From: a virus
Taxonomy: Duplodnaviria; Caudoviricetes
DNA: 64,000 bases
Direction: 5' to 3' (one strand)
IMG/VR virus record: IMGVR_UViG_3300015214_000001
Span: 144,459-208,458 of that record
Numbering within the stretch: position 1 is the stretch's first letter; every line of letters starts with the position of its first letter. The translations under genes and the position numbers were made by a program. This document shows positions 30,427 to 63,898 of this stretch, piece by piece. The notes beneath the pieces are model-generated. The model did no database searches and was not told where the DNA came from. It worked only from the letters and a program-made list of their open reading frames with translations.

Positions 30427-31271
30427 CTATACAATCGCTTTCAATATCATCTAAAAACATCATTCGCAATTGCTTAGGTTTATCTCTATCGGCTCGCATA
30501 GTTTCTATAAATAATTCTACCAGTGGATAAGGCTTTTTAACACCGTCAATTGTTCGCGTCAAAATGGCATAATCGGCATATTTAGGGTTACTTCTCATCT
30601 TATTCTCCCAAACCATTGCACGCATGAAATTTGGTAAATTGAAATAGATCGCTCCACGCCAATATTTAGTACCAGCTTTAAAACAAGTACCGCCACAATT
30701 GCCAGTTACCATATTACCCAGTTCGCGTTCATAGTAGCTAATCGGCAATTTGATATTATGTTGTTCACAGTATGCTAATGGGTCTTTTATTCGTGGGTAA
30801 AACCAGAGAGGGTATTTAACATATACATTGCGTTTAGACCAATTTTCGATGGGCGCTGGCAATCTTCCGTATGGCTTGTCAGTTCTGGCGCGTTGATACC
30901 GATCCTTCATGTTGTAACCAATCAACATGAAAACCTTATTGTACCCCCCCCATAATACGAATAGTTTCAACATACTGTTGAATAGGCTTTACTTTTAGCT
31001 CAATCGTGCAATTGGCAACACGGCTATTAAATATCATGCCTTGTTCTTCTGATATGTCATAGGGAGTTTTCCCGCTATTTAAGCGATGGATTTTAATCCT
31101 CAATAGGTTTTCAAGGTCACGCAAAAATCTATGATGATCTTCATGCTCTATATTGGTGTCGGCAAATACAGGGTAAATATGTTCATGGGGATATAGTTCA
31201 TAAGCTCTAATTAGGGCAGCTGCGCTTGATGCGCCACTTGACACTGAAACGATATAAGCCGATTTTTCCAT
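30407..31271 (-). pseudogene. PAPS-reductase/PP-loop family gene split by a G8 tract (30944-30951); phase-OFF allele or sequencing frameshift
   Basis: 5' part VSVSSGASS, FADTNIEHED, CTIELKVKPI; 3' part LIGY, YPL, NCGGTCFKAG; G7 or G10 joins them into 287 aa. Confidence 0.8.
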
Positions 31272-31302
31272 GTATATCCTTTATCCTTTTCTATAATAAA
31301 AA

Positions 31303-31339
31303 TAGAACGCACTAAGTTTAACTTGCCTTAGTGCGTTCT
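31303..31339 (-). terminator. Hairpin AGAACGCACTAAG...CTTAGTGCGTTCT
   Basis: 13-bp stem followed by T-rich run on the minus strand. Confidence 0.6.
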
Positions 31340-31365
31340 GTCAAATAAATTATTATTGTTGCAGG

Positions 31366-31566
31366 CTATGTCAAATCTTTAATAACCTGGAAGCTAAGGT
31401 TATCAATTGGCATAATCCATGCACCATCTTTCGCGCTGTTCTTTTGTAGTTCGCGCACGTTAGGGTGAAACGTTTTTCCACCAACGGGATATAATGTCCC
31501 GTTCTTATGGGTAATAAAGCCGATAACGCCGTTTGGCGCGGGTGATGCAATTACTTTTTCACTCAT
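31366..31566 (-). CDS. Hypothetical protein
   Basis: SD GAGGGG. Confidence 0.6.
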   Translation of the reverse strand: MSEKVIASPAPNGVIGFITHKNGTLYPVGGKTFHPNVRELQKNSAKDGAWIMPIDNLSFQVIKDLT

Positions 31567-31617
31567 TTCCCCTCTTTTCTATTTTTGTGATCTTGTACTC
31601 GATCTTAAAAAATAAAA

Positions 31618-31884
31618 TTAACTAAACAACTCACGGATTACAGCATTGCTGACTACGGTGATGCTATTAGATACAGGCAATGATTTGCCATCAATCACTT
31701 GATGCTCACCGCATTCTTGTCGTAAAGCATCGCACGTAAACATGCGAATTGTCGGCATGTACGTAATTCGCACGACTTTGGTACGAAACACGATTGAACC
31801 AAAGAACGGGTCAGTTGTGTTCATCAAGTTTTTAATTGCTGTCACAACTTCTTGTTGTGATGTGACGTTGAATGTATTGCTCAT
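31618..31884 (-). CDS. Hypothetical protein
   Basis: SD AAGGGG. Confidence 0.6.
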   Translation of the reverse strand: MSNTFNVTSQQEVVTAIKNLMNTTDPFFGSIVFRTKVVRITYMPTIRMFTCDALRQECGEHQVIDGKSLPVSNSITVVSNAVIRELFS

Positions 31885-32191
31885 TTTTACCCCTTTAGTT
31901 GGTAGATATACTACAAGGCTACTATGCAGGTTAGGTAAATGTCAACATAAGGTTTTGTTAAGAAATGTTAAATTTAGAATTAATACCCCTATGGTGATGT
32001 TTTCTGATACTAGGTGCAGTGAGTAGAAAACAAATTAGAACAAAAAATATTATCATTAATTCAACGCTTTTAAATGTATCGCATAAGGGCTTGGATTTTA
32101 CCCTCTATTAATTGTTAAGATTGTGTAAATCTTCCCTAAAAATTGGATATTCACCCTAGATAACCACTACCTAAACTGCTATCATATAGGG

Positions 32192-32662
32192 GTGTTGAAT
32201 GATTGTTTTCAACACAGCACGTTAACAACACAAGGGGAAACAGCTATGTCCTATTACTACTTAGATCAAACTAGCTTGCCTATTGAACCGATTAGCTTTG
32301 TGCAAATGTGGTTCATGCGATATATGCAAATGCCGTTAACGGAAGGTCAAGCGGAGTCCATACGTCAAGACCTATTATCCCGACAGGCAAAATTGCTACA
32401 ATGTGCTAACTTTGACCATAAAACAAAGCAATTTGTCGAATGGTGGGAATATCGCACATTGAACAAAGAAGCATTTATCTTAGGCATGTCTAGCCAAGTG
32501 GTAATTCTAAATCGGTCTGTGCTGAGACTAAATAACAATATGATTTACCCATTGTTACGCGCCTCAGTATGGGAAAGCACCTACGAAACTTTCGACAATC
32601 GCTATATATTCAATATTGGCGAGTCGGTTGCTCAACACATCCCTCACGAAAGTTTCGCCTGA
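32192..32662 (+). CDS. Hypothetical protein (start likely ATG 32246)
   Basis: SD AAGGGG upstream of MSYYYL. Confidence 0.6.
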   Translation: MLNDCFQHSTLTTQGETAMSYYYLDQTSLPIEPISFVQMWFMRYMQMPLTEGQAESIRQDLLSRQAKLLQCANFDHKTKQFVEWWEYRTLNKEAFILGMSSQVVILNRSVLRLNNNMIYPLLRASVWESTYETFDNRYIFNIGESVAQHIPHESFA

Positions 32663-32669
32663 TTATTCA

Positions 32670-32700
32670 TACTTGACAGATAGTTACTATCTGTCAAGTA
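32670..32700. repeat. Perfect 14-bp inverted repeat TACTTGACAGATAG-tta-CTATCTGTCAAGTA
   Basis: Between 32662 and the clamp gene; each arm carries TTGACA. Confidence 0.8.
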
Positions 32701-32739
32701 ATATTTTTATCAAACAAACACAAGGAAAAGGAAATAAAA

Positions 32740-35136
32740 ATGTCCAATGTTAATGCAATTATTCACGGAACAAAGTTTAATCGCTTCGTAGACTTAGCCA
32801 AGCGATTAAAGACATGGTATGGGCAAAAGGATATTGAAGTATCCATTTACAATAACAAAGTGTATGTGTCGATGTTTCAAGGCGATTTAGTCGCTATCAT
32901 CGGCAATACATATAATGAGGAAAATCTTTGCTTTTCGTTTCAGTTGGATGAAATCACAAGTAAGATCGCTAGTCTTGCTGATATAAGGTTAGAACTGTCC
33001 GTGCCGATTGATGGTGGTAATGCCACATTGTCAGACAGTGGTGCTACAATCAACATTCCAGCTGTTAAGCCACTAGGTCTTATCAGTAAAGAAATTACCA
33101 GCTATGATGATAGGCTAAATGTGACACAATTCATGACTTTAGATAAAAAGGTTATGAAAGAACTAATCAAGTCTATCTCAGCAACATCACATGAGGTTTT
33201 ATTTATTATTGGTGATGGTTCTAAAGTTCGGTTTATGACATATGATGGTTTGGGCATTTCGCAAATCATTGTTGATGTTGAAGCTCATGAACCGTTCCAA
33301 CGGTCTTATTATGCAAAGCCAGTTTTAACAGCGCTTAAGGGACTATCTCTAAGCAAAGATGTTAAAACAATCAACTTGTCCTTAAATGAAAACGATGGTT
33401 TTCTAGTGTATGCCGATGATGAATTGACATACTTAGTGAGAACCGACCACAATAAAGACGATTATAACCCTGAGAAATACCCATTAAATTTTCAAAGCAA
33501 AATTGACTTTATGATCGTTAATGAGCAAGCGCAATTTGTCAACCTTAACGGAAAGTCAATGTCATTAGCGCAAGTCATCAGCGATAAAGGCTTAGATAAG
33601 CAAACCTGTTGGATTACGGCTAATGCGCTATCTGAAACCATCACAATAGCAAATATTATTGGTGGTTACAATGATGTAACATTCCCTGCATTTGTCAAAA
33701 ATGGGACTGAAATTGCTGTAGGCATTAATGGCAAACTGCTAAAAAGTTTGCTCACGACTTATGGTGACTTAATGTTTAGTATCCGTGATGATGCTCTTGT
33801 TATCACAGTTAATGGTCAAGGTGGCTTTGAAGTAAACAGCATTATCGCACCGATGGCACTTGACTTTAACAATGATGTGGCGCGTAACGTAATTAAGCCT
33901 GTTATGAGTGTGAATCCAGCCACATACATTGACGCGAATGAGTTCTATGCTATTATTCAAGCATTGCTCAACAATAGTGATAGTGGGACGATCTCTATCT
34001 ACAATAGAGATAATGGGTTACAAGTCATTAGTGGCAATGGGGTTAAGTATGAGGTTGGCTTTGTGACAAATAAGCCAATTGAGGGGATGCCAATTAACGC
34101 TCGCGCTAACTCGAATGCGTTCTTCAAACCTAGCGATAAGAAGTCTTTATCGGCAAAGTTTAGCAATCTAACTAGTAGCATGTTGAGCGTGTACGTTATC
34201 GACAATAGCATTAAGCTATATGACGAAAACAATGAGATTATCACATTGCCCTTTTATGTCAATGATGACACCAAAGAAGTTGTTATTACAAACTATAAGC
34301 GTACTGAGTTCTTCAATAGCAAACAAAAGGCAGTTGTCACATTAACCAGCGATGACTTTAGAAATGCCGTTAACATCGCTAGTAAATTCGCGGCAACCGA
34401 TAACAATAGACCTACAATCAATAGTGTGCATTTCTCTTTCCGTAAATCAGAAGTTGAAATTGTTGGCACTGATGGTTATAGGCTGAGTGTAGATACCAGA
34501 AATAACCTAGCGGGTACTGTTGATGCTGATGGTTTGTGCCTTGAGCCTAACGCACTGCTTAATACGCTTAAATCAATTGCTAACGCTTATATCTCATTAG
34601 TGCTGGTTAATGATGGTGATACTGTAGCTATTATCGGACATGATGAACCAGATAACCTAACATCTGACAGTAGCAAAACTATCACCTATCTGTTTATCAT
34701 TCCTGGTAGATTTCCTGATTATTCAGTAATCTTACCTGCTAAATCAAGCATGATCTATTTTGAAGAAATTGAGATCACGTCTGATAAAATCACAAGTAAT
34801 GGTGATAGTTTTGAAACAGTGTTTGAGCGTGCAAATAAACTATCAAGCGACAATCATTTTCTAGGTGTATTCACTGTAAAGAGATATACAAGTACAGTTA
34901 CATTCAGTGTCCCTCATGCCGACAAAAAAGCACAAGGTCATGCTCTATCGCTAGACATCCCCGCGCAAAATATTCATGCTGATTACAATATCGGTGTGAA
35001 TATAAAATACTTGTTAGATGCTGTGAAGTTAAGCGATAAGCACAAACATATGTTGTACTTTAGAGAACAACGCGACTATCTAATTGGTAAGTTTGGAACA
35101 GTTACATACGTTATCATGCCAATGTTGAACGCCTAA
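32740..35136 (+). CDS. Double-length DNA polymerase III beta-clamp-like protein (two tandem beta protomers)
   Basis: Second half: FAATDNNRPTINSVHF..VGTDGYRLS, PGRFPDY, IGVNIKYLLDAV, YVIMPM; first half degenerate: MTYDGLGIS, EKYP, VGINGKLLKSLL, SIIAPM. Confidence 0.8.
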   Translation: MSNVNAIIHGTKFNRFVDLAKRLKTWYGQKDIEVSIYNNKVYVSMFQGDLVAIIGNTYNEENLCFSFQLDEITSKIASLADIRLELSVPIDGGNATLSDSGATINIPAVKPLGLISKEITSYDDRLNVTQFMTLDKKVMKELIKSISATSHEVLFIIGDGSKVRFMTYDGLGISQIIVDVEAHEPFQRSYYAKPVLTALKGLSLSKDVKTINLSLNENDGFLVYADDELTYLVRTDHNKDDYNPEKYPLNFQSKIDFMIVNEQAQFVNLNGKSMSLAQVISDKGLDKQTCWITANALSETITIANIIGGYNDVTFPAFVKNGTEIAVGINGKLLKSLLTTYGDLMFSIRDDALVITVNGQGGFEVNSIIAPMALDFNNDVARNVIKPVMSVNPATYIDANEFYAIIQALLNNSDSGTISIYNRDNGLQVISGNGVKYEVGFVTNKPIEGMPINARANSNAFFKPSDKKSLSAKFSNLTSSMLSVYVIDNSIKLYDENNEIITLPFYVNDDTKEVVITNYKRTEFFNSKQKAVVTLTSDDFRNAVNIASKFAATDNNRPTINSVHFSFRKSEVEIVGTDGYRLSVDTRNNLAGTVDADGLCLEPNALLNTLKSIANAYISLVLVNDGDTVAIIGHDEPDNLTSDSSKTITYLFIIPGRFPDYSVILPAKSSMIYFEEIEITSDKITSNGDSFETVFERANKLSSDNHFLGVFTVKRYTSTVTFSVPHADKKAQGHALSLDIPAQNIHADYNIGVNIKYLLDAVKLSDKHKHMLYFREQRDYLIGKFGTVTYVIMPMLNA

Positions 35137-35159
35137 CAAATATCAGCACAATATTAAAC

Positions 35160-35195
35160 AAAAAGAGCAAGCTATTGATATGGCTTGCTCTTTTT
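35160..35195 (+). terminator. Intrinsic terminator AAAAAGAGCAAGC...GCTTGCTCTTTTT
   Basis: Stem plus T-tract 24 nt after the clamp stop. Confidence 0.75.
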
Positions 35196-35391
35196 GTATT
35201 CTATGGGGGATACAGTCATTATATAACAACTAACTGCATTTGCCTAATCGCGCTAATAATAGAAAATTTTGTTCTAAAAACAAAAAAATCTTCTTGGTTG
35301 TTGAAATTATTTGTTTGTCTGACATAGGGCTTTCTCACAGAGGGGTATAATCAGGCTCATTATACGTTTGTGCTAATGAGCCTGATAGATG

Positions 35392-36336
35392 TTATTCTAG
35401 CATTTGAACGTGTTTAGATGCACCAAAGTCAAGCAACTCATTAGGAAGTTGATTAAGTCTTACCTGTTGCTCATACCACTTGATAACACTTGCATTCCAG
35501 ATCACAGCAGCTAAGTGATCTTCTGATGTATCCTCATTAGCAAATGCAATAACATGACGCAACATAGAAGCATAAACCCTACTAACGTTAATGCCCTTTT
35601 GCCAATTATTGACACCATATTTAGCAGCGCCGACATAGTATAGCCTAGCAACGTGATTCAACGCGATTTTAGGGATTAATGTGTAATCGCACTCTGATGT
35701 ATTATAAAGTTCGGCAAACTGGGGTTTATCGCTGTTATATAGTGCCTGATCGGTAGCGCATCCACCATACCCACTTTGCAAAGTTTTCAGCACATCTAAT
35801 GGGATTAGATGATACATTGGCTTGCCTTGCTGATTATCTCTGTGAGCGCCTGTTGTAAACTCGTCAGTTACATTGCCACCCTTGACAATTGGCTTATCGC
35901 TGTCAAGTTCTAACTGAGGAATCACATCGCCTAGTGTTTTGTTGGTCATATTGAATTGATGAATAAGCTCATCTAGGCCACCATCTTCATAATAGTGTTT
36001 CCAGCGAACCTCTTTAGTCTCAGGGTCAATCCATGCGTGAGATAGAGCAGACCATGAGTAATAACCCTCATTATCCATTGAATACGTTTTCTCATCAGCA
36101 CATGAGCCTTTTATGAATTTCACTTCTCCTTCGGCAATGTCGTAAACCCATAGCGTATTTGTCATTGCTACAATTAAAGCCTCATGCACATGATCGACAA
36201 AAACAGCTATCGGCTTATATTGATTAACAGATTCGTAAGGATATTTCCATTTTTTCTCTGATATGTGCCGATAGTATAGTGAACGATCACGATGCACTAA
36301 CTCATAATCTTTAAATCTTACGTACTTTACTGACAT
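35392..36336 (-). CDS. dATP/dGTP diphosphohydrolase (DUF5664-type) domain protein with N-terminal extension
   Basis: FTTGAHRD..GKPMYHLIP, GAAKYGVNNWQKG, ASMLRH, EDHLAAVIWNA. Confidence 0.8.
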   Translation of the reverse strand: MSVKYVRFKDYELVHRDRSLYYRHISEKKWKYPYESVNQYKPIAVFVDHVHEALIVAMTNTLWVYDIAEGEVKFIKGSCADEKTYSMDNEGYYSWSALSHAWIDPETKEVRWKHYYEDGGLDELIHQFNMTNKTLGDVIPQLELDSDKPIVKGGNVTDEFTTGAHRDNQQGKPMYHLIPLDVLKTLQSGYGGCATDQALYNSDKPQFAELYNTSECDYTLIPKIALNHVARLYYVGAAKYGVNNWQKGINVSRVYASMLRHVIAFANEDTSEDHLAAVIWNASVIKWYEQQVRLNQLPNELLDFGASKHVQMLE

Positions 36337-37356
36337 TCTTGCGCCCCTTGAACGATTGTGTTACAGGATTTAATGCTAAGTCAATATCAAGCCCACCAGT
36401 GCCATCAAATGCCCTTTGACCGATGCAAGATTGACACAGATTAAAGGGGTCTTGATTATCCAATTCTTCTGGCTTAATCGACTTTTGTAAATGCCACCCT
36501 TGAGTCAATCTGTCAGGGTGTAAGGTCATATCTTCTTCATCCCATATTCCTGATTGAACTAAGGCTAATTGTAATTCATATGCCGTTTGAACTAGTTTTT
36601 CACGCAATTGATCTATAGTTTCATACTCTGGACTAACAATTGCGCGTCGTTCACGTTCACCGATGCTCAAATTCGCATAACATTGACATTCATAAGAATG
36701 CTTCATGTAATCAGCATATTCGTTGCGCGGGATGTTAAGTATCTCTATTGCTAAATCGCGTTCTTGAATGTGCCAATCAAAGATGGGGTTAGCTAGAGAT
36801 TTAATGACTTTGCCACGCTTATCCTTTTTAAGCATCATCAAATCAACAAAGCTATTTCGACGTGAGCTTTCAGCTTTCCGTAAGCCTGAAATTTGCATTA
36901 CTTCACTCTGTTTGACCTCTAACTTTTTTGCCACTTGAGAGAATAACTGATCGAGTAGCTTACCCTTCAATTCACGATACATAATAGAGTGATAGGCTGG
37001 TGATGGAAAACCCCATGAAATAATCAATTGCTCATATCTGCCTTTTTGTGGTGGCTTGCCAATTCTTAATTCCCATTGATATAAATTGGCAATATCATAG
37101 ATGTATTGTTTAGTTTCTTTAGCGCCTGTTAGCGTATTAGCCCAACAAGCGCCGACAAAACTATCAGGGAAAGCCAGTTGAGCGATTCTTCCTGCTAAAA
37201 CAGAATCGTGACCACCAGACCACGATACAGCTACGCCTTTAAATTCGTAAAGATGGTATTCTTTGCGAATCCTCTCAATTGTTTCATGTATTTTCTGTTC
37301 TACCCCCCCCGATTTGTTTCAAAGTGGGTTGTATCCTGAACAGTTTTGTTATTCAT
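36311..37356 (-). pseudogene. PAPS-reductase/PP-loop family gene interrupted at a G8 tract (37303-37310); phase-OFF allele or sequencing frameshift
   Basis: ATG 37356 (SD AAAGGG) reads MNNKTVQDTTHFETNRGG then TAG; G9 continues VEQKIHE..SWSGGHDS..GLRKAESSRR..NPIFDW..ECQC (348 aa). Confidence 0.8.
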
Positions 37357-50144: not shown

Positions 50145-50181
50145 TTAAATTTCCTTGTGCTAATATTTAATCGTTAACAGC

Positions 50182-50211
50182 ACTATATATCGGGGGGGGT
50201 AGTTTTGTCAA
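50182..50211 (-). promoter_or_regulatory. TTGACA-18-TATAGT promoter with a C8 tract in the spacer
   Basis: G8 on + strand at 50192-50199. Confidence 0.6.
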
Positions 50212-50230
50212 TAACGATTTTACAATGTCA

Positions 50231-51532
50231 TTATCTCCAACCAGAGATAACTCTTAGCGCTCTCAATAACTCACCTTGAAAACGGTCGTCATCAATTCTA
50301 TATGCCTTCGGTTCTACATCGACACCATTAATTGTCAATAGTCGCCAATGTCGGCAGTTGCCAACGTTGAGAGTAACTGCTTTGCCATCAACATTGGTCA
50401 ATGATAATCTGCCTACTGGCTCTCTATCTGTAATCTGCAAGTGATACTGAGTAGTGATGCACATTTTACTCAAATAGGTAATCCCGCGCATTAGATCATC
50501 AATTGGACTTTGTGCATTATAAAAAAGCATAAGGACTGGCATCAGTGGATTGTTTGATAGTTTAATCAGCTGTTTAGTATGGGGTGTTTCGTACAACCAA
50601 GCTGAGACTGTTCTTGATTCGTCGCTCTTGTGCCAATAAGACAATGTATAGCCATGCTCATTTTTAACTTTATCAACACGGCCATATTGCCAAATGGGTG
50701 ATTGCATTGCAAATGTCATATTAACTTCTTGCATCAGTCGCCTTTGGTAATAACTCGATGCTGATCGGGTGAGCATGTGTCAAGTAATCGGCAAAACTTT
50801 CCTTAGTCATCATATCTACCCCGTCCATGCTGGAAAGCAATATATATTCACCGACTTTAAAATAGCCGATACGCCCTTGAAAATCCTGTGTCAGTTCTTT
50901 CTTCACTTCTGCAATGAGTTGGTCAATTTGTGCTATCTGAAACTCAAGGTCTTGTCTTTGTCGATTATTCTCAATATAGCGCTCAATTAACTCAGCAGTC
51001 ATCACCCCTTCTGGTATGCCATTCACATAATCAAACAGCAACGTTTCACTATGTAGATCATGTGTTTTCTGCTTAACGCTAGTCAGCAATTGAAGATTGT
51101 CGCATTGTGTCAAGATATATTGGATGTGTTCGGGAATATCAAACACATCTTCAATACGTGGCAATAGTTCAATTCGCTGATTAATTTCTTCACTGCTATT
51201 CATTGGTCTATCCCCGTTGTATGCTAATAGAGCTACGGCTTGCGTAACTGTTTATACGATTATAGCACGGATTATGAGCTAATTTTCGCAATATACGCAT
51301 TTAAAACCGCTTCAATATCGGCGGCAAGGTTATCACCGCTGTAGATCAGTTGATCGTCGGCTGACCAGCCGAACAGTCCTTGATTGACTTCATCAAACAC
51401 GCATGGATACCACCAGCGCGACTCGAATTCATTAATCGCAACATAGGCTTTTTTGTTGGTGGGGTTGCGCTTGCCTAGCGCGTTAATCATGCTATCCGCT
51501 AGGCGTTGGCTTGTTTTGATGTTCTCAAACAT
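50231..51532 (-). CDS. Hypothetical genes 50231..~50719, 50721..51203 and 51272..51532
   Basis: Packed ORFs with SD sequences. Confidence 0.55.
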
Positions 51533-51740
51533 AATTTATCCTTATTCTAAAGTTACAACAAACGTTCTATACATTGTGCCATAGGTGCTAAGAAAATATC
51601 AATCCTCAATATTTTTATTGTGTATTTTGCCCTATAGTTTTAGGTAGTTTTTCCCTCAAATTGATAATGTTAAGGGTTATATTTTGTTGTGCATTATGCT
51701 ATATTAGACCTATCGCAAGCTATAAGAAAGACTGTCTAAA

Positions 51741-52904
51741 ATGTCTGCTTTTGAGATAAATAAACGTTATATTCACTCAATGCCGATAGGCAACATATCA
51801 GATACAGGAATAAAGTTAATCTGTGAGTACCTGACAAACATTAGACCTAGTTCTGATGAATTGTGGAAACAAACCAATGTAGACCGACATTTACCTTATG
51901 TTCTATCAGGCTTACCTGATGACTGGTCTTATACTTGGCTAGTAACAGGACGCGGGGAATATGTAGGTACATTCCCAAAAAGAATCGCTAAATATTATTA
52001 CCAAACACACAAGATCAAAATGCCGTCGAGTATTTTATCTCAAATTGGCAATATTGCTAAAGATCATTCAAGTGATATTGCTACCTATGAGTTTGATTTT
52101 ACAGATACTTTTGATTGGCAATCAGGCGATTATGGCGATAGTGGTTCGTGCTATTGGGGTAGCTATAGTTCTGCTAAAGAACTATTGTCTAGTAATGGTG
52201 GTCTTGCCATCAGGTTTTACAAAGACAATCAGGGATATGGTAGGGCTTGGATTATGCCCCATAATGAGTGTTACTACTTATTCAATGGGTATGGCTTACA
52301 ATTAGTATCAATTGCAAGGATTTTATCATCATTCCTTAATTTGTCTTATAAGGCTATTAGGATTAGTGCTATTCGATATATATATATCAATGGCGGTAAT
52401 CAATACGTTGTAGGGGATGTATCGGCAATTGCTGACATTACAAGCTATCATATCAATGTTGATGGCGATATTGAAGATGAGGATAACCGTCAATGTGATT
52501 GTTGTGATGATACATACCACTATGATGATATGTATTATACAGAAGATGATTATTGTTTATGCGAATCATGCTATACACATGAGACAACAACTTGCTATGA
52601 TTGCAATTGCACATATTGGCATGATGATGATATGCGTTTTATTGAGAACATAAATAGTAACGTTTGTGAAAGTTGCTATGAGCAATCATACTCTATGTGT
52701 GATAGTTGTGCTGATTATTTTAGCAACGACGTGTTGACTAATACCAGTGGTGATGATTATGTTTGTGAAAGTTGCTTAGAAGAATATGCACATTGTGAAT
52801 CTTGTGAGCAATTAATCGAATCTAACAGATTGATAGAACATGACGACTTGAATTATTGCGAGTCGTGTTATGCCGAACTATCATTAGAAACAAGCGATGA
52901 TTAA
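51741..52904 (+). CDS. Hypothetical protein with C-terminal tandem CxxC (Zn-ribbon) repeats
   Basis: CDCC, CESC, CYDC, CESC, CDSC, CESC, CESC, CESC in the last ~140 aa. Confidence 0.7.
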   Translation: MSAFEINKRYIHSMPIGNISDTGIKLICEYLTNIRPSSDELWKQTNVDRHLPYVLSGLPDDWSYTWLVTGRGEYVGTFPKRIAKYYYQTHKIKMPSSILSQIGNIAKDHSSDIATYEFDFTDTFDWQSGDYGDSGSCYWGSYSSAKELLSSNGGLAIRFYKDNQGYGRAWIMPHNECYYLFNGYGLQLVSIARILSSFLNLSYKAIRISAIRYIYINGGNQYVVGDVSAIADITSYHINVDGDIEDEDNRQCDCCDDTYHYDDMYYTEDDYCLCESCYTHETTTCYDCNCTYWHDDDMRFIENINSNVCESCYEQSYSMCDSCADYFSNDVLTNTSGDDYVCESCLEEYAHCESCEQLIESNRLIEHDDLNYCESCYAELSLETSDD

Positions 52905-52913
52905 TTAGCTTTA

Positions 52914-52949
52914 AAAACCGTCATAGATTATTATGGCGGTTTTATTTTT
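52914..52949 (+). terminator. Intrinsic terminator AAAACCGTCATA...TATGGCGGTTTT
   Basis: Stem plus T-tract after 52904. Confidence 0.7.
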
Positions 52950-52960
52950 AGTATCACTCA

Positions 52961-53124
52961 GAACAAAAGTTTTAAAAATAAAATAACCCCATTCTGAACT
53001 ATTAGCGAAACAGTTTAGAACAAATGTTCTGATCGTAAAATCGGCGTGATAAAAAGTTTGAGTGTTAGAACAAATATTCTGATTATTAGTAATTTTTTAA
53101 GATTAATTAATAGAACATTTGTTC
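52961..53124. promoter_or_regulatory. Cluster of four GAAC-N4-GTTC (LexA/Cheo-box-like) sites
   Basis: GAACAAAAGTTT 52961, GAACAAATGTTC 53018, GAACAAATATTC 53068, GAACATTTGTTC 53113. Confidence 0.65.
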
Positions 53125-53150
53125 TCGTTTTGCGGCATTACACTGATTGG

Positions 53151-54832
53151 TTAGATCAGTGTAATTTGATTTGAGCCGATACTGCCGATAAGTTGTTGAC
53201 GCAAGAGGGTTAGACGTTGAATTTCATCGTTGATTGCGCCGATACAAACATCGTGTTTTTCTTTTACTTTGACATGGGTTTCCATTTTGTCGATTAGACC
53301 GCTAGACGACGCATAGCGGACATGACGGGGTGTTTGATACTCTTTGACTACAAACCGATTGTGTATTTCTTCATCTAAAGCAGACACGGATAATTGCACA
53401 GAGGGGTCAATCTGAAACTTATCGGCAATAGAACCATCAAGTACATTATAAATATATCCAAGTGATAATCGAATAGCTAGGCGTTGAATTTCTTCGACTT
53501 TGCCCCATCGAGAGTTGATATGCACGCTATATTGACCATTAGCATCAATAGCTACATTAGGATCAACCTCTCCACTTCCCAAAGTAAATGGCAAATGATA
53601 CGCATTATTCACAAGTGTAACTTCCATCGGACATTTGATGAAAGCATCAGGCGATAGTGCCTTGATTTTATTGTCAAGAATAAGCGCATATATATTCGAT
53701 AGGGTGACATATTCTTCTATAAAGAAATAGTAGTGTTGTTGAATTGATCCCACATTCATCAACCAATTCAAATCATCAATCATCTTCTGACACGTATCGG
53801 CTGATACCAATGGATATTGATTGATGAGGTCAATATCTTCATTTGATAGACCAGCTACACTATATGATAATGTATGCCGCCAGCCTCGAGATGGATTATA
53901 ACGCCACACTAATGGATGTATGCCAGTCACCACATATGCTAAACGTGCAGAGTATTCAAAATACCATTCAAGATCATTATCAGAAGTTCCAAAACCTTCA
54001 ACAAACTGCCATATACCATCCTCATGCTGGTAGTGCTTAAGTTCTTCTGTTAGTGTAAGCTGCTTAGTATAGAACCATGACATTTCTAATGGCATTAGAT
54101 TGAATCCTTATTTTGTGTGTCTAACCAGTTGACCAATTTGTTATAAATCAAATCAGGCGTATCATAGAACCCGCGCACACCACCGTAATGATAATGCCCA
54201 AATACATGGGTTAAAGTAATGAGGAATAAGTGCTTATGATAACCCAACAATGAACCATGAAAATCATAGTTAACACCGATGTTTACACTATCGTCACCAT
54301 TGACGATATGGCGGCGCTCAACACTGATAGTTATGCAATCTTCATTAACAATTGTGACCAGACCTTCATCATTAGGATAAAACAGCTTATCAAGTGCTGA
54401 TAGAATGTTAGATGATAAACGAATAGATGCTTTACGTTCAAATGTTAAGTTATCTGGACTTGGAATTAATGCCACAATATCATCTGACTGTGAATATTCC
54501 CTGAAAAAACGTATCAGTTCTGAGATTGACTTATCATCTGCATTTCCGTCCCAGTAGATAATTTTTTGATCTTCATCAAGGAAGTCAAAGCCACCTCTAA
54601 TGCCTTCCAACACACCTGCACTAAAATCTATATCATATGCGTGAATGAATATAGCGCCTTTAAAGTAGGGGTCTAACGGTTGGTACACTGTAATGTCGCC
54701 TTTTTGCCAATTATTATACCCATGTGTCGAGCCTTCTTCTGGCTGGAATTGTTTATACTTATTGAATTCATCAACAATGCGTTCAATAACAGCCTTACTG
54801 ATTGCCACTTCAAAGTAATTTTCTCGTTGCAT
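53151..54832 (-). CDS. Two hypothetical proteins (53151..54095 and 54095..54832)
   Basis: TAATG-coupled long ORFs. Confidence 0.6.
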
Positions 54833-56815: not shown

Positions 56816-57526
56816 CTATTCATCAATTAAATGATCTGGCAACCAACTGACGGGTTCAACATCCCCAACATAAATGCCAGTATAACCATAACCTGCAAGC
56901 CAAAGACCTACTACTAGCGCGTTGGGGAAATAATTAAATTGGCGCACGTTCATCTCATCATCATCAAAGTTAAATAAATGACAATGATAAGGAAAATCGG
57001 CGGATGGCCAATTAACATGAGATACATCTAGCATTAAGCGACCATACATAATTTGATACTGATTACCTGTCAAGCCAGCTTCTCTGTTGAGGTCAGACTC
57101 ACCATAACCATACCCTTTAACGTGTCTCCAACCCCACATTCCAAACCAGTTTACGGCAGTAGGTTCAGAATGATACATTAAGTTTACTAGCATCGCCATG
57201 ACAACAACAGTTATATCATTGATGATTGTTTGAAACTGCTCCTTGTTAGGTTGTTCAAGTGCGACATTCATGCTGTTAAAACCATCACATCTTTGGAAGT
57301 CTTGGTTCATATGTATGTCGATACGTTCCGAAGAAATAAAAATATTGTAATCGGCAAACATCAATACGAATTGCCCTCTGTCTTTTAAGAACCAACGGAA
57401 ACTAACCCCATCCATATCATTGATAGACTGGATAACACCATCTACTCTCTCATCAGCGATACCCCGATGAATATTCCACAACACATCGAGTTGCTCTTGC
57501 GTGAAACGGCTCTCCGCTTTATTCAT
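56816..57526 (-). CDS. Hypothetical protein, paralog of 57618..58313
   Basis: T.EQ...LWNI at the N-terminus, VGLWLAGY.Y at the C-terminus. Confidence 0.6.
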   Translation of the reverse strand: MNKAESRFTQEQLDVLWNIHRGIADERVDGVIQSINDMDGVSFRWFLKDRGQFVLMFADYNIFISSERIDIHMNQDFQRCDGFNSMNVALEQPNKEQFQTIINDITVVVMAMLVNLMYHSEPTAVNWFGMWGWRHVKGYGYGESDLNREAGLTGNQYQIMYGRLMLDVSHVNWPSADFPYHCHLFNFDDDEMNVRQFNYFPNALVVGLWLAGYGYTGIYVGDVEPVSWLPDHLIDE

Positions 57527-57566: not shown

Positions 57567-57593
57567 ATTTTACCCCCCCATTACAAATGTCAA
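57567..57593 (-). promoter_or_regulatory. TTGACA-15-TAAAAT promoter with G7 in the spacer
   Basis: C7 on + strand at 57573-57579. Confidence 0.6.
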
Positions 57594-57617: not shown

Positions 57618-58313
57618 TTATCTTACGGAAGGATCATGGCCTTTAGCGTAATCATATCCAGCAAGCCATAAGCCGACTGAAAGTTCTTCGGCACTGCTAT
57701 CTACAACGTGACGCGCAGTAATTTCGCCGTCGTTATTAGTTTCTTCAAAAATATACTTTAGCCAATTAACTGAATAGTCATAAGACACGCTTCTTGATTT
57801 GTCGGCATAGTCCACAGTTACTCTGACATGCTTCGCTTCCGATCCATTAATGCCATATAATTTGTCAGAAACAACTGTTAGTTGCTTCTCGTATCCGCGC
57901 ATCCACTGAACCAAGTCGCGCAATGACAAATTACCAGGTGTCCATGCCTCATCCTCATAGAAGAACATATCTGTAGAACACATTAACGCAGGCAGTCGAA
58001 TGTCAGTCAAAAGTGCCTTGAACACCCAGAATGGGATACCTGTTAAGTGCCAGTCGGCAATATCAAAGCCACCGTCAACGGGTGTAATTATCTTTACGAT
58101 ATAGTAATCCTCTTGGGCAACAATTCTATACTCTGCTGGCCGACCTTCGCTAGGTAATGTTTGAATCACGAAAGAATTTTCTTTCTCGTTGAATGGTTGA
58201 AGCGCCCCATCACTAATAAGCTCATCAAGACAACTATCCCATTTGCTATCTTTGATATTCCATAATGCTTGTATTTGTTCATCGGTTAAAGGTGTAGAGG
58301 TAAACATCGTCAT
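57618..58313 (-). CDS. Hypothetical protein, paralog of 56816..57526
   Basis: Same shared terminal motifs. Confidence 0.6.
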   Translation of the reverse strand: MTMFTSTPLTDEQIQALWNIKDSKWDSCLDELISDGALQPFNEKENSFVIQTLPSEGRPAEYRIVAQEDYYIVKIITPVDGGFDIADWHLTGIPFWVFKALLTDIRLPALMCSTDMFFYEDEAWTPGNLSLRDLVQWMRGYEKQLTVVSDKLYGINGSEAKHVRVTVDYADKSRSVSYDYSVNWLKYIFEETNNDGEITARHVVDSSAEELSVGLWLAGYDYAKGHDPSVR

Positions 58314-59098
58314 TATTCCTTTTCTGGTTTTTGTCTTGGGTCGAATACCTTTATTTTTTGGAAATTAGCATCATAAAACGCTCTAAGTAAGCGCTCTAAG
58401 CCTTGAGTAGTTGTACAAGAGCGATATTCGTACTGAGGGTTACTTATCGACTTCTTTTGCCCTAACATATACCTTTTGGGTTCATACCAGCCGACAATGC
58501 GCGGCTCATTACTACCAATCCCCTCAGCGATAAGTGTTAATGAATCTGCGACGATAATATCATCTAAAAATTCAAAACTCAGCATCTTTTGATTAGGGCC
58601 GACAATATGCGGCGATAGCACAACGTGGTAAAAGGTATTGTATCCTAGCAACTTACTCTTTAATGCGCGTTCTCTTTGCTCAAGATCATCATGCTTGATC
58701 CCTAGTAGCAAGTCAAAAATACAATCGAATTTCCAAGTGTCAAAATTTCTAAGAATATAGGAGGTTTCCATAGGGCCAACCATATCATCTGTATATTTAA
58801 TGACAACTTCGTCTGTTTTATTGCCGATTGTCAAGGCGTTACTATCGCGTGTCCATGTGACATAATAATCACCTAGCAATTTAAGGCTGAACACTTCGCC
58901 AGATGAAGTTACTTCGCTTGTAAAATCTGGTCGATCAGCAATCCATTCCTTGAAAAACACTTCTCTGCGTGTCACATCTTGATACGATATGTAATCGGCA
59001 AAAATACTGTGTGCATCAATGAGCTTCATTATGCTTGATCCTAGTAAACTACAGAAAGGGGTAAAAACGTGGAACTCCACGTTTTTGTTAATAGACAA
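58313..59098 (-). CDS. Hypothetical protein (start likely MKLIDAH, ~59029)
   Basis: Long ORF; the annotated N-terminus overlaps palindrome copy 4. Confidence 0.55.
   Translation of the reverse strand: MSINKNVEFHVFTPFCSLLGSSIMKLIDAHSIFADYISYQDVTRREVFFKEWIADRPDFTSEVTSSGEVFSLKLLGDYYVTWTRDSNALTIGNKTDEVVIKYTDDMVGPMETSYILRNFDTWKFDCIFDLLLGIKHDDLEQRERALKSKLLGYNTFYHVVLSPHIVGPNQKMLSFEFLDDIIVADSLTLIAEGIGSNEPRIVGWYEPKRYMLGQKKSISNPQYEYRSCTTTQGLERLLRAFYDANFQKIKVFDPRQKPEKE
59063..59086. repeat. Palindrome AAAAACGTGGA-AC-TCCACGTTTTT (copy 4)
   Basis: Perfect copy immediately after the stop of 59088..60005. Confidence 0.85.
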
Positions 59099-61229
59099 AA
59101 GGCGCTTGGTGAGGCTTAATATTCAATTGTGCCATCAATGATCCTAATTCAGGCAATTGTTTGACGTATGTTTTATCAGATGTCTTGACTTCATACCACA
59201 CCCCACTACCTAACTCTTTCCTTTTAGTGATGGTGATGTTGGTATCGGCAACTCTGATTGGCTTATTGTCAATCAACACTTCCTTTGCCCACCAGTTCCA
59301 GAAGATATAATTCAGGTTTGCTGGTGTAATCGGATAATCATAAAATGCAATTTCTGTTTCATCAGCAAACGCAACTACATTTGACTGACCATCTTCAATC
59401 GCGCTTTTCTCACTGGGTCTAATGAGGTAATCAACTTCTACTAAGTTTCCGTCAATGGGGTCAAATAATAGTTGTCGATTAAATGGTGGAAAGTTACGGG
59501 TTTCCCACACCGTATTTCGCTTGACCTTATGCCATAACGGATGTAATACGCCATAGACCGCATTAGCGTCTTGAAATGACGCAGTATTATTTAATAGCGT
59601 AATAAAAGCTGGCACTCTTTCCCATTCATATGTCTTTTCAGAGCGATATTTACTGATTAAATGCTGTGCATCTTTATACGCAATAATGCTCTGGATTAGG
59701 TTCTCACGGTTGCTAATGGGTTCTTTGCTATCAGATGTGCGATCATATAATAATCGGTCAACTGATACATATAACTCATCGCCAATCGTTATCCCGTGTC
59801 CAGCATTTAATACCGATAAGAAATCATGGTAGACATCGGCATTGACTTTATCAAACTGGACATCCTCTCCATATGTTGCGATCAATGTATCCTCATATTC
59901 CAACCGCAACTCAATCTCATAGCTATCAACTAAATATATCTGATAGCCCTCGGGCCATGTCCAGTTCTTGCGCTGCTTTAAAAAATCAATAAAGTTGTCG
60001 TTCACAGTGAGCCTTTCAATGGTGCGAACATTTGTTTTAGGTGCTTATTTTATCAGGATGTCTTACTATCTATTAATGTCAACTATAGGGGTGAGCAAAG
60101 CACACTGAATACTGTTCTTTATCAGCGTGCTTTGTTATCTAGTCCTTAATGGTAATTGTCTTAATACCAGTCCATTTACGTCTTACTCGTGGCTCATAGT
60201 CTAAATGCACCAAGAGTTGCAGATCATCGCTATCTTCATAGTATTGGTCAAACAGATCAGAGTTAAATAGGATATAGTGCAGATGGCCGATTGTTGTTTT
60301 AATTGCTCCATCCGCAAATTGGCTTGTTAGTTCACGGAACGCACTTAGTTCTTTCTCTAACCGTTCACCGCGTGCAAATTGCTGATAGAGCATAGAGAGG
60401 CTACGCATGAAGGTGAAATCCCTTGATAGTGCCTCTTTGCTATTACCGTTAAATCCCCATCGCAGATCAACTAGAGGAAATTTACTGTTATCCTTCTGAG
60501 CTTTCAATACGATGAAAGCCGACACAACCCCTTTGCTAACTAAATTTGTTTTGTCGTCTAACTCTATGTGACAAGAATATGTCATATCATCCACGCGCTT
60601 AGTATTCCAAGCCTGAATAATATTAGAGCGCTTCAACGGATATGATGAGTTCTTGATCCAGAATGTCCGAATGCCCATATCTGTTCTAAATACTGGGCTA
60701 CGCAGTTTCACATTGCTGCCTTCTGACCATGTATTAAATCCATTTGTTAATGTCATTGTTGACCTCCTTTTTCACTTGTTAAGGGTGGGATTTGCTTATG
60801 AGCCACCATGCACTTAATGATCGTCTCTCTGTGGTCATCAAGATAACCAGCTATATCATCAGCGTCATATGGAGAGAAACGGCTTTGATGGACACTAGCT
60901 CTCACAATAATGTTTTTAGCAATTGGTGAAAATTCCACCAAGCCGACATAGAACCCGCGATGGTTAGTCAGTTGAGCCTCACGCCAACCATATACCATCA
61001 GCTTAGTTTCCTTGTTATGTCGATGCGCTAAAAACACAGCATACTGGATGTCACTATTGCTATTCATAAAGATGGTTGGAGCTTCATCTTTGATGGTATT
61101 CAGCGCGGAGCAATAGATATTGTTCTTGATTGCATATTCAGTTGGTGTCCATTTCTCATGATTATCTTCATAATCATATAGCTTTTGAATTGCTTCAATG
61201 AATTTATTCTTGTCGTTAACTCCTAGCAT
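59088..61229 (-). CDS. Hypothetical genes 59088..60005, 60139..60756 and 60753..61229
   Basis: Long ORFs with SD sequences. Confidence 0.6.
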
Positions 61230-62087
61230 GATCTTTCTCCTTTACTAGGATATATTGCACATGCAGAGGGGCTAACACAAATGCGCCACCTTTTGCGGGT
61301 GCGCGATAGTACAGTTCATTTGTGCGCTCAAAATCTATTGCCGATACAAGCCCAAACATGCCACTGTCATACATGCACTGGGAGCTATGATAAAGAACGT
61401 ATCCTTCATCAACTAAATTGAATATCTCATCACGAGACATTAATTGGCTATTATAGTACGTTGTATTTTCAGTGTAGCTGGATCGCTGACCAACTAACGC
61501 ATATTTGTTTTGTTGTTGGTTAGCAACGTACAACTCGATCTCAACGCAAAGAAAACCATCATCTTCTGATGGAGCGTGATAGCGCCACACCCCATCTAGG
61601 TGATCCCACTCACGCCAGAACATCAAGACAGTTGTTTTAGTCATGACTACAGAACAGTCTTGATTAAAACGTACTGGATGTCGGCATGAGCATTGTCATC
61701 AGCATCGTATAGCTGGTTGTCAGCGACATTCGCAATGCGATCATGACTGATACCTTGAGGATCATTAGCTGAGATGCTCGGAAAGAATAGCATAACATCT
61801 GATGGGTTATCAATAAGGTACTTGACGCTATAAATACCCCACCCCATATCTTGAAGGTCTCTGACTTCTTCATCAGACAAATCAGCAATTACGTATTCAT
61901 CTGATGATAATGGGCCAGTGATTTTAACTGGCAATAACTTCACACCAAGATCAACAATATTGAAGCGTGCCGATAAGTTGATCTTCTCCCACTTGACACG
62001 ATGGCTACACATGAACGTGTATGGCGCGGAATATTGCCATCTGCCTGTCTTGAGGTCTGCCATTCGGTTGACCAGTAATACGCGCAT
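61216..62087 (-). CDS. Two paralogous hypothetical genes (61216..61644 and 61647..62087), DUF4177-like
   Basis: G.W.Y.AP, L.D.G(Y/W).(L/I)Y and QY(I/V)L(V/I)K shared. Confidence 0.55.
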
Positions 62088-62088
62088 T

Positions 62089-62538
62089 TCATTTCCCTTT
62101 CAGTTTATTTAAAAATTCAATAACGCCTAATTTAACTGATAATACCATATTATGCGTATTTGCAACACGGTAAATTATGATATGAATTTCACCCTTCCCT
62201 TTACCAACCCCGCGATCAAGCGCAGCGCCAATACGCACAATCTGACGATCATCAACAAATGCAATTTCATTGAGCGCGTCTAATACTGCCTTGAGCAGGT
62301 TATCTATATCGGCATTGCGGCGTGTCTCTTGGCTAAAGCCGACTTCAATCCCAATGTCATATGGTGTGGGTTCTAAACCAAGTTGCGACATTGCGCTTTG
62401 TGTCATCAGTTTCAAGTAATCTTCATAGTCTTTTGTGCGTTGTGGCGTATAAGCGCGTCCATTTGCTACGCGAGGTCTGCCTTTGGGGACTGGATCAATA
62501 TTGATTGTTAACGCAAATATTATGTCTTTGAATCTCAT
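62089..62538 (-). CDS. rusA: RusA-family Holliday junction resolvase
   Basis: PVPKGRPR..YTP..T..YE; ADIDNLLKAVLDALN..FVDDRQI. Confidence 0.9.
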   Translation of the reverse strand: MRFKDIIFALTINIDPVPKGRPRVANGRAYTPQRTKDYEDYLKLMTQSAMSQLGLEPTPYDIGIEVGFSQETRRNADIDNLLKAVLDALNEIAFVDDRQIVRIGAALDRGVGKGKGEIHIIIYRVANTHNMVLSVKLGVIEFLNKLKGK

Positions 62539-62620
62539 ATGTAACCCTCAATTAATTACAGTGGATATATCAGTAGATTGCCGACATATCCACCACAACA
62601 TCAACTGGGTTTATTTTACC

Positions 62621-63418
62621 TTACTTGTCAACATATGGGAAAGACATGATATGGTTAACTAAGGCATAATAGACAATATCAGGTAAGTTGTCGGCAAAAT
62701 AAAAAGGCTTATCCGTTACTGGTATATATATACCTAGATTTCCTGATCCTACTATGCCCTTAATGCTGAAACTAAATCGTTTATGACGATGGGGCAGATC
62801 GACATCATAATCGTGCATCACTCTAACATCATCAGCCTCGAATAAGATATGATCTTTCAGAGATAACACATCAACGTATTCAAGATCGCGGAAAAAACGG
62901 TTAAACTTACGTTCAACTTCTGCATCGCGCGGAATATCATAGCGCTTACATACGAATGGTGGAGCGTATTTTTTACGGGGCGCTTTAGCCTTATCGCCTT
63001 TCACTAGATCAACTAGAAACCAGTAAACCGCGTCTTTTGTTGCGGCTGAAAGGTCGCCGTAATCTCCTAGTAATATATTTGGCGCAAAAATATTATCGTC
63101 AGTGTCAGTAAACGAATGTGTCGATTTAACAATATTGCCTCCGCAAGCATCAGCCATGACGAATTCAAGAAAAGTCATTGTCCCACCGTATAAGGTCGCA
63201 CTCTGAATAATTAGTATCCCTAATTCACCAAACTCACCTAATCGCTTGATAAATCTATGTGTCTCAAGCCCTACTATCGGTGATAAAGATATAACCTTAT
63301 CGCCAAATGCTATTTGACCATGTGACGCTAACGGGCAACTTTCAACTAATGCTTTCAGTTGCTCGTCTATGGTTCTGTTGCACTCAATTAATCCATAATA
63401 CCCTGTTTCTTTTGACAC
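62621..63418 (-). CDS. Hypothetical protein
   Basis: 265-aa ORF. Confidence 0.55.
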   Translation of the reverse strand: MSKETGYYGLIECNRTIDEQLKALVESCPLASHGQIAFGDKVISLSPIVGLETHRFIKRLGEFGELGILIIQSATLYGGTMTFLEFVMADACGGNIVKSTHSFTDTDDNIFAPNILLGDYGDLSAATKDAVYWFLVDLVKGDKAKAPRKKYAPPFVCKRYDIPRDAEVERKFNRFFRDLEYVDVLSLKDHILFEADDVRVMHDYDVDLPHRHKRFSFSIKGIVGSGNLGIYIPVTDKPFYFADNLPDIVYYALVNHIMSFPYVDK

Positions 63419-63485
63419 TGCTAAAAAAATGTTCGTTGTCTTGAAACCGCATTTAACACCTCATAGAATATTTGATCTATAGCGT

Positions 63486-63512
63486 ATTCTCCCCCCCCGA
63501 ATATTTTGTCAA
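63486..63512 (-). promoter_or_regulatory. TTGACA-15-GAGAAT promoter-like element with G8
   Basis: TTGACAAAATATTCG8; near-duplicate of the 63871 element. Confidence 0.5.
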
Positions 63513-63590
63513 ACCGTTAATATAACAAAAAAGCCGATAGACATTTCTCTATCGGCTTAATCGGCTTTGAGTGAAACTGTGGAATAAGGC

Positions 63591-63845
63591 TTAAACCCCA
63601 GTCTCGTATCGCGCCCACCGCATCAAGCGTGGCGCGACTTTAATTCCCTCCTGTTCAGCAACAACGACAATCGCCATTGCTGCGGCTTCACGATATGATA
63701 CTGCTTCATGGAACACATGGCTATCAACAATCAATTCAACGCGACGGTTGCGCTTATTCCAGCGTGTGTACACATCGCCTGATGTTGCTGTTTCAATCTT
63801 GCCTAAAATTGCTTTAACTGATTTCTCTTTCATGTGTAACTCCAT
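63591..63845 (-). CDS. Hypothetical protein
   Basis: SD GGAG before MKEKSVK. Confidence 0.55.
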   Translation of the reverse strand: MELHMKEKSVKAILGKIETATSGDVYTRWNKRNRRVELIVDSHVFHEAVSYREAAAMAIVVVAEQEGIKVAPRLMRWARYETGV

Positions 63846-63870
63846 ATGTTCCTAATTAACTTATACTCTT

Positions 63871-63898
63871 ATTTTACCCCCCCCCGAATATTTGTCAA
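63871..63898 (-). promoter_or_regulatory. TTGACA-16-TAAAAT promoter with G9 in the spacer
   Basis: C9 on + strand at 63877-63885. Confidence 0.65.

Follow-up and report, generated by a model that had tools for sequence, protein, structure and literature searches.

An uncultured, circular 208-kb landfill phage carries numerous long runs of G or C, raising the question as to whether these are accidents of its sequence or switches through which its progeny could be varied. A first-pass annotation of one 64,000-nucleotide stretch of the phage record (the window) had singled out seven G/C runs of at least seven residues and proposed that they form a contingency system; the coordinates and lengths it gave are accurate, and the window contains no further G/C run of this size. 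We have examined the tracts both in the window and across the genome and conclude, at a probability of roughly 0.78, that they are simple-sequence contingency loci that change length by slipped-strand mispairing.

The tracts are strongly over-represented. The window holds six G/C runs of eight or more, where a first-order Markov model expects ~0.17 and an order-3 model expects 0.7 (a maximum of 3 in 60 simulations), in keeping with the earlier claim that well under one should arise by chance in 64 kb. For runs of seven or more the order-3 model expects 2.8 and reaches 7, so the excess in the window rests on the G8/G9 class; this model was trained on the window itself, and its expectations are inflated because the training sequence includes the tracts. 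Run-length counts over all 208 kb yield 41 G/C runs of at least seven, and the 38 of at least eight compare with 3.6 expected genome-wide under an order-3 model (a maximum of 6 in 20 simulations) and 0.3 expected by extrapolating the decay from G3 to G5. The genomic spectrum of lengths is bimodal (G5, 51; G6, 10; G7, 3; G8, 28; G9, 9; G11, 1), and A/T runs of at least eight are depleted (2 seen against 23 expected). These patterns bear on the possibility that the tracts reflect non-adaptive mutability, in which a polymerase or repair bias makes G runs that survive in dispensable genes, the disrupted genes being young pseudogenes. Drift of this kind predicts a smooth decay in length, whereas the observed counts dip at G6-G7 and peak at G8; the purging of A/T runs also speaks against it, as does a control set of 11 unselected viral records with only three runs of at least eight in 502 kb.

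Sixteen of the 41 tracts lie in genes and 18 in the spacers between -35 and -10 elements, with seven unclassified, so that pure G/C repeats are found where one unit alters a reading frame or a promoter spacing. The absence of G runs of seven or more from the 30 kb of structural genes, noted previously, is borne out, with the first 30.9 kb of the window containing a single C6 and nothing longer:

1-30300, unstranded: mostly virion and packaging genes (terminase at 18033-19715), without a G/C run of seven or more

This segment is part of a 41-kb tract-free structural block of the genome (0 tracts against 8 expected, P 3e-4), and a 38-kb replication block has two. This placement fits a restriction to non-essential, environment-facing genes, with methyltransferase, PAPS-reductase-like and fibre genes enriched.

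Three tracts in the window lie inside genes, two of them PAPS-reductase-like and one a C5 methyltransferase, as the first-pass annotation had reported:

30944-30951, minus strand: G8 tract in PAPS-like gene 1, out of frame; in frame at G7 or G10
30407-31271, minus strand: PAPS-reductase/SspD-like PP-loop gene 1 (Pfam PF01507; PADLOC SspD, E 3e-13)
37303-37310, minus strand: G8 tract in PAPS-like gene 2, after codon 15, out of frame; in frame at G9
36311-37356, minus strand: PAPS-reductase-like PP-loop gene 2 (PHROG 424, E 3e-11), 348 aa at G9
48856-48864, minus strand: G9 tract in the C5 methyltransferase, in frame at G9
48603-49541, minus strand: C5 cytosine methyltransferase alpha ORF, 312 aa (Pfam PF00145, E 1e-49)
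48668-49360: nested alternative-frame ORF in the C5 methyltransferase

The first PAPS-like gene, directly upstream of an N6-type methyltransferase/DUF4942 gene (28957-30426), is split into ORFs of 111 and 188 aa, with the SspD match falling on the N-terminal half; at G7 it would encode one 287-aa protein, and its full-length homologues are 278-292 aa long. The second begins with an ATG preceded by a ribosome-binding site, 12 bases past the upstream stop codon, and adjoins a dGTP-diphosphohydrolase-domain gene (35392-36336); its homologues are 321-333 aa long. Both tracts are G8 in all five assemblies in which each was seen. PAPS-like homologues from other phages lack the tract. The proteins have a PP-loop PAPS-reductase-like domain with conserved cysteines, five being invariant in four homologues; they score below the NCBIfam cysH cut-offs and match BrxP weakly in addition to SspD. 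No DndC/SspD partner genes (cysteine desulfurase, DndD/E, SspB/C) occur among the ten proteins scanned with PADLOC. A predicted structure of the family was discarded, the AlphaFold model being poor (pLDDT 57) with only weak PP-loop matches in Foldseek. Their sequence similarities suggest that the PAPS-like proteins may act in DNA modification.

Tracts occur in four of the seven methyltransferase genes of the phage (all three C5 enzymes and one of four N6/N4 enzymes) and in both PAPS-like genes, such that DNA-modification-type genes, with ~5% of the coding DNA, hold 6 of the 16 coding tracts (binomial P ~8e-5). The proposed enrichment in these genes is thus upheld, and within the window the tracts are indeed confined to DNA-modification genes and promoter spacers; genome-wide they are not, since three fibre genes, a helicase, a DUF6610-GNAT fusion and genes of unknown function also carry them, and the system is wider than had been described. 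Ten of the 16 coding tracts are out of frame, and all ten genes read through without a further stop once the frame is corrected. The in-frame share (6/16) is at the chance level, as non-adaptive mutability would have it, and the on alleles of most off genes have never been seen: both PAPS-like genes and two of the C5 methyltransferases are off in every assembly, so their on alleles are unobserved, and the three tract-bearing methyltransferases other than the one in the window were seen in one state only. Sample B, described below, also contains a 13.4-kb deletion variant that removes the window C5 methyltransferase, and such genes are therefore dispensable. The off genes have nonetheless acquired no second lesion, and the tracts hit four of seven methyltransferases and occupy one fixed site in 13 of 15 perfect promoters; we regard non-adaptive mutability as unlikely.

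The intact halves of every split gene could also be explained if the off genes were expressed by programmed recoding on the G run, whether by slippage of RNA polymerase or by ribosomal frameshifting, with changes in DNA length being secondary; slippery heptamers can arise where T follows a run of G. The required shifts differ from gene to gene, however, three of the coding tracts appear in the message as runs of C, promoters hold 18 of the tracts, and the DNA lengths do change, making this explanation barely credible.

Contingency loci should vary in length, and we have therefore compared tract lengths, at the consensus level, among assemblies of two landfill samples (A and B) made with three pipelines including JGI and Logan; the window itself probably derives from sample A, which leaves only two samples in the comparison. 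Tract length differs between assemblies at 9 of the 36 tracts compared. In sample B, 8 of 33 tracts differ over 105 kb that contain just 4 substitutions and in which 0 of 96 A/T runs of six or more are changed, a length polymorphism far above background at the consensus level in these two samples. Variation was seen at 7 of 9 G9, 2 of 24 G8 and 0 of 3 G7 tracts (Fisher P 3e-4), although the greater variation of G9 is partly regression to the mode. Logan assemblies of the two samples, made with one and the same assembler, differ in length in both directions. Frame state changes between assemblies in two genes, the helicase, which is whole (480 aa) in two sample B assemblies and split in the third, and the window C5 methyltransferase, whose tract at 48856 is G9 in sample A assemblies and G8 in two sample B assemblies. 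Translated at G8, the alpha chain becomes a 290-aa hybrid without its motif-X end (motifs IX and X being assigned by eye), and the nested chain terminates at the tract; the frame of this methyltransferase thus depends on the tract, and both alleles are seen. The arrangement of alpha and nested chains resembles that of M.EcoHK31I (PMC2836561). The differences between samples support the slippage-type hypermutability proposed earlier.

Could the lengths be fixed and in frame, with the calls in error? Within a sample the assemblers give discordant lengths at three tracts, JGI being the longer in all three, and at all nine differing tracts the window's assembly is the longer one, so a pipeline effect may contribute; the circular contig is also cut inside a tract. 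The first-pass annotation had allowed that accurate reads might reveal fixed in-frame lengths and 17-bp spacers, with long-read homopolymer errors producing the frameshifts. Long-read error is excluded because the assemblies, from two samples, are of short reads (HiSeq 2500 2x150), and they retain both the frameshifts and the off-optimum spacers; at 27 of 36 tracts, both PAPS frameshifts included, all three pipelines give the same length. Nor would a single systematic miscall suffice, since the corrections needed vary in sign (+1, -1, +2) and no one bias restores all frames or 17-bp spacers, while A/T runs never differ. An artefact of sequencing or assembly is already largely refuted and very improbable.

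The four remaining window tracts follow a TTGACA, as had been noted, with spacers of 18, 15, 15 and 16 bp:

50182-50211, minus strand: promoter-like TTGACA-18-TATAGT, with C8 (50192-50199) on the promoter strand in the spacer; upstream of the operon holding the window C5 methyltransferase
57567-57593, minus strand: promoter-like TTGACA-15-TAAAAT, with G7 (57573-57579) abutting the -10; upstream of ORF 56816-57526
63486-63512, minus strand: promoter-like TTGACA with a 15-bp spacer and imperfect -10, with G8 (63491-63498); upstream of ORF 62621-63418
63871-63898, minus strand: promoter-like TTGACA-16-TAAAAT, with G9 (63877-63885); upstream of ORF 63591-63845

For sample B the Logan assembly gives the last tract as G8, and the cut point of the circular contig falls inside this tract. 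Only one of the 18 tract promoters in the genome, which include 13 of the 15 perfect TTGACA/TA(A/G)AAT promoters, has a 17-bp spacer. The same promoter layout is present in small-genome bacterial MAGs, at 4-25 copies.

The tracts share a flanking context, as the first-pass annotation also recognized. A pyrimidine lies 5′ of all 38 runs of at least eight (~62-66% for G3-G5 runs) and TA follows 31 of the 38 (11-15% for G3-G5 runs). Stop codons or -10 boxes are insufficient to account for the TA, because the flanks track the G strand even in genes and promoters in which the run reads as C, with TA retained in 4 of 4 such cases. These strict flanks, the strong mode at 8 and the adjacency to the -10 box would all suit a protein recognition site (operator, stoperator, nicking or recombination site) whose length changes are incidental. 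We consider this quite improbable, as ten copies break reading frames, lengths vary between samples, and no interrupted G-rich copy, of the type usual in operator families, was found in any promoter spacer of the genome; neither the fixed length nor the degenerate copies at equivalent positions expected of operators or stoperators are seen. Simple slippage does not predict the strict Y-Gn-TA context either. One tentative suggestion is that it marks a sequence-directed mutator, with the runs targeted for length change by some factor of phage or host origin or through a context preference of the phage DnaE or primase; were this true, the methylome, host range and accessory transcription of a single phage would be under ~40 switches that can be combined.

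In the contingency-locus model that we favor, the nascent strand would slip on a G7-G11 run during replication to gain or lose one base, with population lengths hovering around G8-G9. Slippage in coding tracts would flip the reading frame on or off, presumably reversibly, while in promoters the run, abutting the -10 box, would set the -35/-10 spacing (15-18 bp, mostly one or two steps from 17 bp) and so tune the expression of operons of small genes of unknown function. The outcome would be a mixed population differing in methyltransferase sets, fibres and accessory-gene expression, and the altered DNA modification could benefit the phage against restriction and modification-dependent defences. 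Searches of IMG/VR and JGI contigs with methyltransferase, DnaE and capsid/protease sequences and with exact promoter patterns turned up no close relative, and terminase and SSB gave only distant matches for host assignment. The window contains neither tRNAs nor members of Rfam families, and the genome has no MutS domain.

Descriptions of phage contingency loci are recent and mostly concern single genes or minority alleles that are rare, and some 40 long G runs in 208 kb, over most strong promoters and more than half of the methyltransferases, would constitute a bacterial-style phasome. Campylobacter jejuni has about 30 tracts in 1.6 Mb, and the density here would be roughly ten times greater. 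This virus probably varies its offspring at random, as some pathogenic bacteria do, and existing reads would allow phage bet-hedging to be tested in nature. The tracts further point to small genes of unknown function that likely serve host conflict, and where a phage assembly shows genes split at G runs, these should not be written off as errors.

Several known systems share parts of this design. In Fletchervirus phages of Campylobacter, poly-G tracts within receptor-binding genes are hypermutable (Sorensen et al. 2021, as reported in PMC12633550 and PMC11868660), and in these accounts G7-G12 runs frameshift fibre/RBP genes at a glycine linker; CP81 and CP30A, however, have only two runs of at least seven each, with a 5′ A and no TA, whereas the 41 runs here are mostly in promoters and DNA-modification genes. 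The phage contingency loci T2 agt and T4 rIIA (Gomez, Barrick, Waters 2025, PMC12633550) include slippage in a DNA-modification gene, agt, that hedges between opposing restriction systems, and agt is an experimental precedent for the model of the first-pass annotation. Those loci are A runs, default on and mostly in ORFs, with rare minority alleles (~7e-4 of agt reads; PMC12633550), whereas in the landfill phage pure G8-G9 tracts shift in their majority allele, the default state is off in 10 of 16 genes, and nearly half of the tracts sit in promoters. A poly-G tract, mentioned in PMC12633550, lies in bpm, the adenine DNA methyltransferase gene of Bordetella phage BPP-1, and inspection of the sequence shows it to be a G8 run with C on its 5′ and T on its 3′ side, but it is the sole such run in a 42-kb genome and affects one enzyme and no promoters. 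At the Neisseria meningitidis porA promoter (van der Ende 1995, as cited in PMC5084427) a repeat between -35 and -10 alters their spacing, and bacterial phasomes and phasevarions include phase-variable methyltransferases at many loci per genome; these, unlike the present case, are bacterial systems. In the open-access phase-variation literature we met no phage for which promoter-spacer switching is reported as a genome-wide design. Fletchervirus, BPP-1 bpm, T2 agt and porA are precedents, and what is new is the scale, the use of promoters in a phage, and the Y-Gn-TA context.

The source record is circular, 208,458 bases long with a 123-base end overlap, and the window is its final 64 kb. All seven poly-G runs that the first-pass annotation reported in the window are present, and its claim that structural genes lack them also stands, the first 30.9 kb of the window being without any. 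The whole genome contains 41 G/C runs of at least 7 (three G7, 28 G8, nine G9 and one G11), a count that leaves out a duplicate run at the contig end; G5 and G6 runs number 51 and 10. For runs of at least 8, an order-3 Markov model predicts 3.6 and extrapolation from the G3-G5 decay gives 0.3, and three are found in 502 kb of 11 viral records chosen solely for having a methyltransferase homolog. A/T runs of at least 8 number two, against 23 expected under the order-3 model. The G/C excess is real and bimodal in length. The first 49 kb of the genome contain 23 of the runs, and the 41-kb structural block is free of them.

The phage is present in two landfill runs, recognised by contigs of equal length: sample A (SRR6484323) and sample B (SRR8449813). 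Assemblies were allotted to the samples by alleles in common; JGI 3300028603 is from well LW2 (2017) in a landfill series of Southern Ontario that was sequenced on Illumina HiSeq 2500. Because the window's own assembly groups with sample A, that sample is not independent of it. In consensus contigs, rather than reads, nine of 36 tracts differ over the 119 kb compared, each by one base.

Tracts differing in length between assemblies
Genome positions 1253, 13085, 13641, 15414, 33423, 36159 and 123532
Window positions 48856 (C5 methyltransferase tract) and 63877 (promoter tract)

For sample B the comparison spans 105 kb with 4 substitutions: lengths differ at 8 of its 33 tracts and at none of 96 A/T runs of at least 6. 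The window's remaining five tracts, including both PAPS frameshifts, have one length in every assembly seen. For the helicase, two sample B assemblies (ENA and Logan) give an intact gene and the JGI one gives a split gene, suggesting alleles at near-equal frequency in the reads. Since the window's assembly is the longer in all nine differences, and JGI the longer in all three within-sample disagreements, pipeline effects may contribute. A purely technical cause is nonetheless very improbable, as one pipeline yields unlike lengths in A and B, the A/B difference at 15414 runs in the opposite direction, and no single bias would restore all frames.

Other variation was also seen. Three of the four between-sample substitutions (genome 116660-117589; L016:6661-7590) are non-synonymous and fall in the C-terminal part of one fibre paralog, the sole one without a G tract, suggesting selection on host binding there. 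Sample B has a 3.3-kb skip joint at depth 9 (L012:16173-19520) and uneven contig depths, which point to further deletion variants in the small-gene region.

Sixteen runs lie inside genes, six in frame and ten out of frame, where tract length would set the reading-frame state.

Genes carrying coding tracts
C5 methyltransferases: three of three
N6/N4 methyltransferases: one of four
PAPS-reductase-like genes: both
Helicase adjoining an N6 methyltransferase: one
DUF6610-GNAT fusion: one
Fibre-like genes: three, at a glycine linker
Genes without family match: five

The first-pass restriction of tracts to DNA-modification genes and promoter spacers therefore holds for the window and fails for the genome, where the last four classes also carry them. 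Even so, the enrichment in methyltransferase and PAPS-like genes is real (P about 8e-5). PAPS-like gene 1 (30407-31271, tract at 30944) gives at G7 a single 287-residue reading that aligns end to end with four homologs of 278-292 residues; the run, absent from all four, falls in a variable loop. In PAPS-like gene 2 (36311-37356, tract at 37303; homologs 321-333 residues) the start codon is joined to the PP-loop only at G9, with no in-frame ATG, GTG or TTG between run and PP-loop. An SspD match (E 3e-13), a weak BrxP match and nearby methyltransferase and dNTP-hydrolase genes suggest that both act in DNA modification.

The window C5 methyltransferase, with motifs assigned by eye, holds a nested second ORF, as in M.EcoHK31I, whose beta chain, from another frame, contributes motif IX (PMC2836561). 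The run lies in the overlap, and allele translations keep both chains at G9 only; G8, the length in the sample B ENA and Logan assemblies, yields a 290-residue hybrid lacking the motif-X end, and the nested chain is cut short. Recoding, by which frames would be recovered in expression at such runs, is scarcely credible. A 13.4-kb deletion variant with 10-base microhomology (window 40088-53490, genome 184546-197948) removes this gene and about 25 others. It is the form in JGI 3300028603; sample B Logan contigs break at the same points and the ENA assembly retains the region, and therefore both forms probably coexist. In an unrelated provirus of 57 kb, the C5 methyltransferase homolog likewise contains a G9 run (L003:10496-10504).

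Seventeen runs occupy promoter spacers, flanked by TTGAC(A/T/G) on one side and a well-matched -10 box on the other; the spacing is 15 bp in six, 16 in five, 17 in one and 18 in five; window 63491 is one further such run with an imperfect -10. A run is present in 13 of 15 perfect TTGACA/TA(A/G)AAT pairs at 15-18 spacing. These promoters head clusters of small unknown genes and, from consensus and gene context, are presumably early. Tract length would set the -35/-10 spacing, and at the modal length nearly every promoter is one or two bases away from 17 bp, a putative default-low design.

Seven runs are unclassified. At genome 81620-81691 (L014:14620-14692), nested G6/C6/G8 inverted repeats in a 508-residue gene, with flanks unlike other tracts, are possibly an origin or hairpin element. 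A 223-base repeat (93% identity; genome 47559-47781 and 76894-77116) is common to a 360-residue gene and the primase-helicase gene.

All 38 runs of at least 8 have a 5' pyrimidine and 31 are followed by TA, as are 13 of 16 coding tracts. A -10 box or stop codon does not explain the TA, because all four tracts that a gene or promoter reads as C runs keep it as well. Flanks that promote slippage, a targeting factor, or an origin of the tracts in promoter-like copies could account for the context; that the tracts are instead protein-binding sites, to which such a shared context might also belong, is quite improbable beside their varying lengths.

We favour slipped-strand mispairing, with a probability of roughly 0.78, by which lengths would settle near G8-G9. 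The phage genome includes a DnaE gene of its own, and a search of it found no MutS domain. Mutability without adaptive value is judged unlikely. Slippage may bring a benefit against restriction and modification-dependent defence, to judge from the gene classes and the precedent of T2 agt (PMC12633550).

The TTGACA-G7-11-TA(A/G)AAT promoter also occurs in 4-25 copies in small-genome bacterial MAGs (G006, G007, G008, G046 and G010; pieces L212-L241), mostly uncultured Clostridia including Candidatus Caccopulliclostridium, at spacings mostly of 15-16 and seldom 17. Many copies precede a paralogous family of membrane-anchored proteins of 300-500 residues, a candidate antigenic-variation repertoire. 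Gut viruses have the same layout in single copy (G7-G10). In one near-identical viral family (many IMG/VR contigs of 25-49 kb, L023-L069) a common promoter varies from G7 to G10. Two copies of another phage's gene have an interrupted run in one and a pure G10 in the other (L018:11502, L019:4803), a possible instance of tracts of this kind arising or becoming locked.

Every single element has precedent; for their combination in one phage, with poly-G loci by the dozen in promoters, methyltransferases and fibres alike, a search of mainly open-access literature turned up no description. Poly-G fibre switches are known from Fletchervirus, where CP81 and CP30A have two runs per genome, compared with 41 here, and lack this flank context. 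BPP-1 has one G8, in its methyltransferase bpm, with a 5' C and 3' T. The T2 and T4 contingency loci are A runs (PMC12633550), and promoter-spacer repeats are reported for Neisseria (work cited in PMC5084427).
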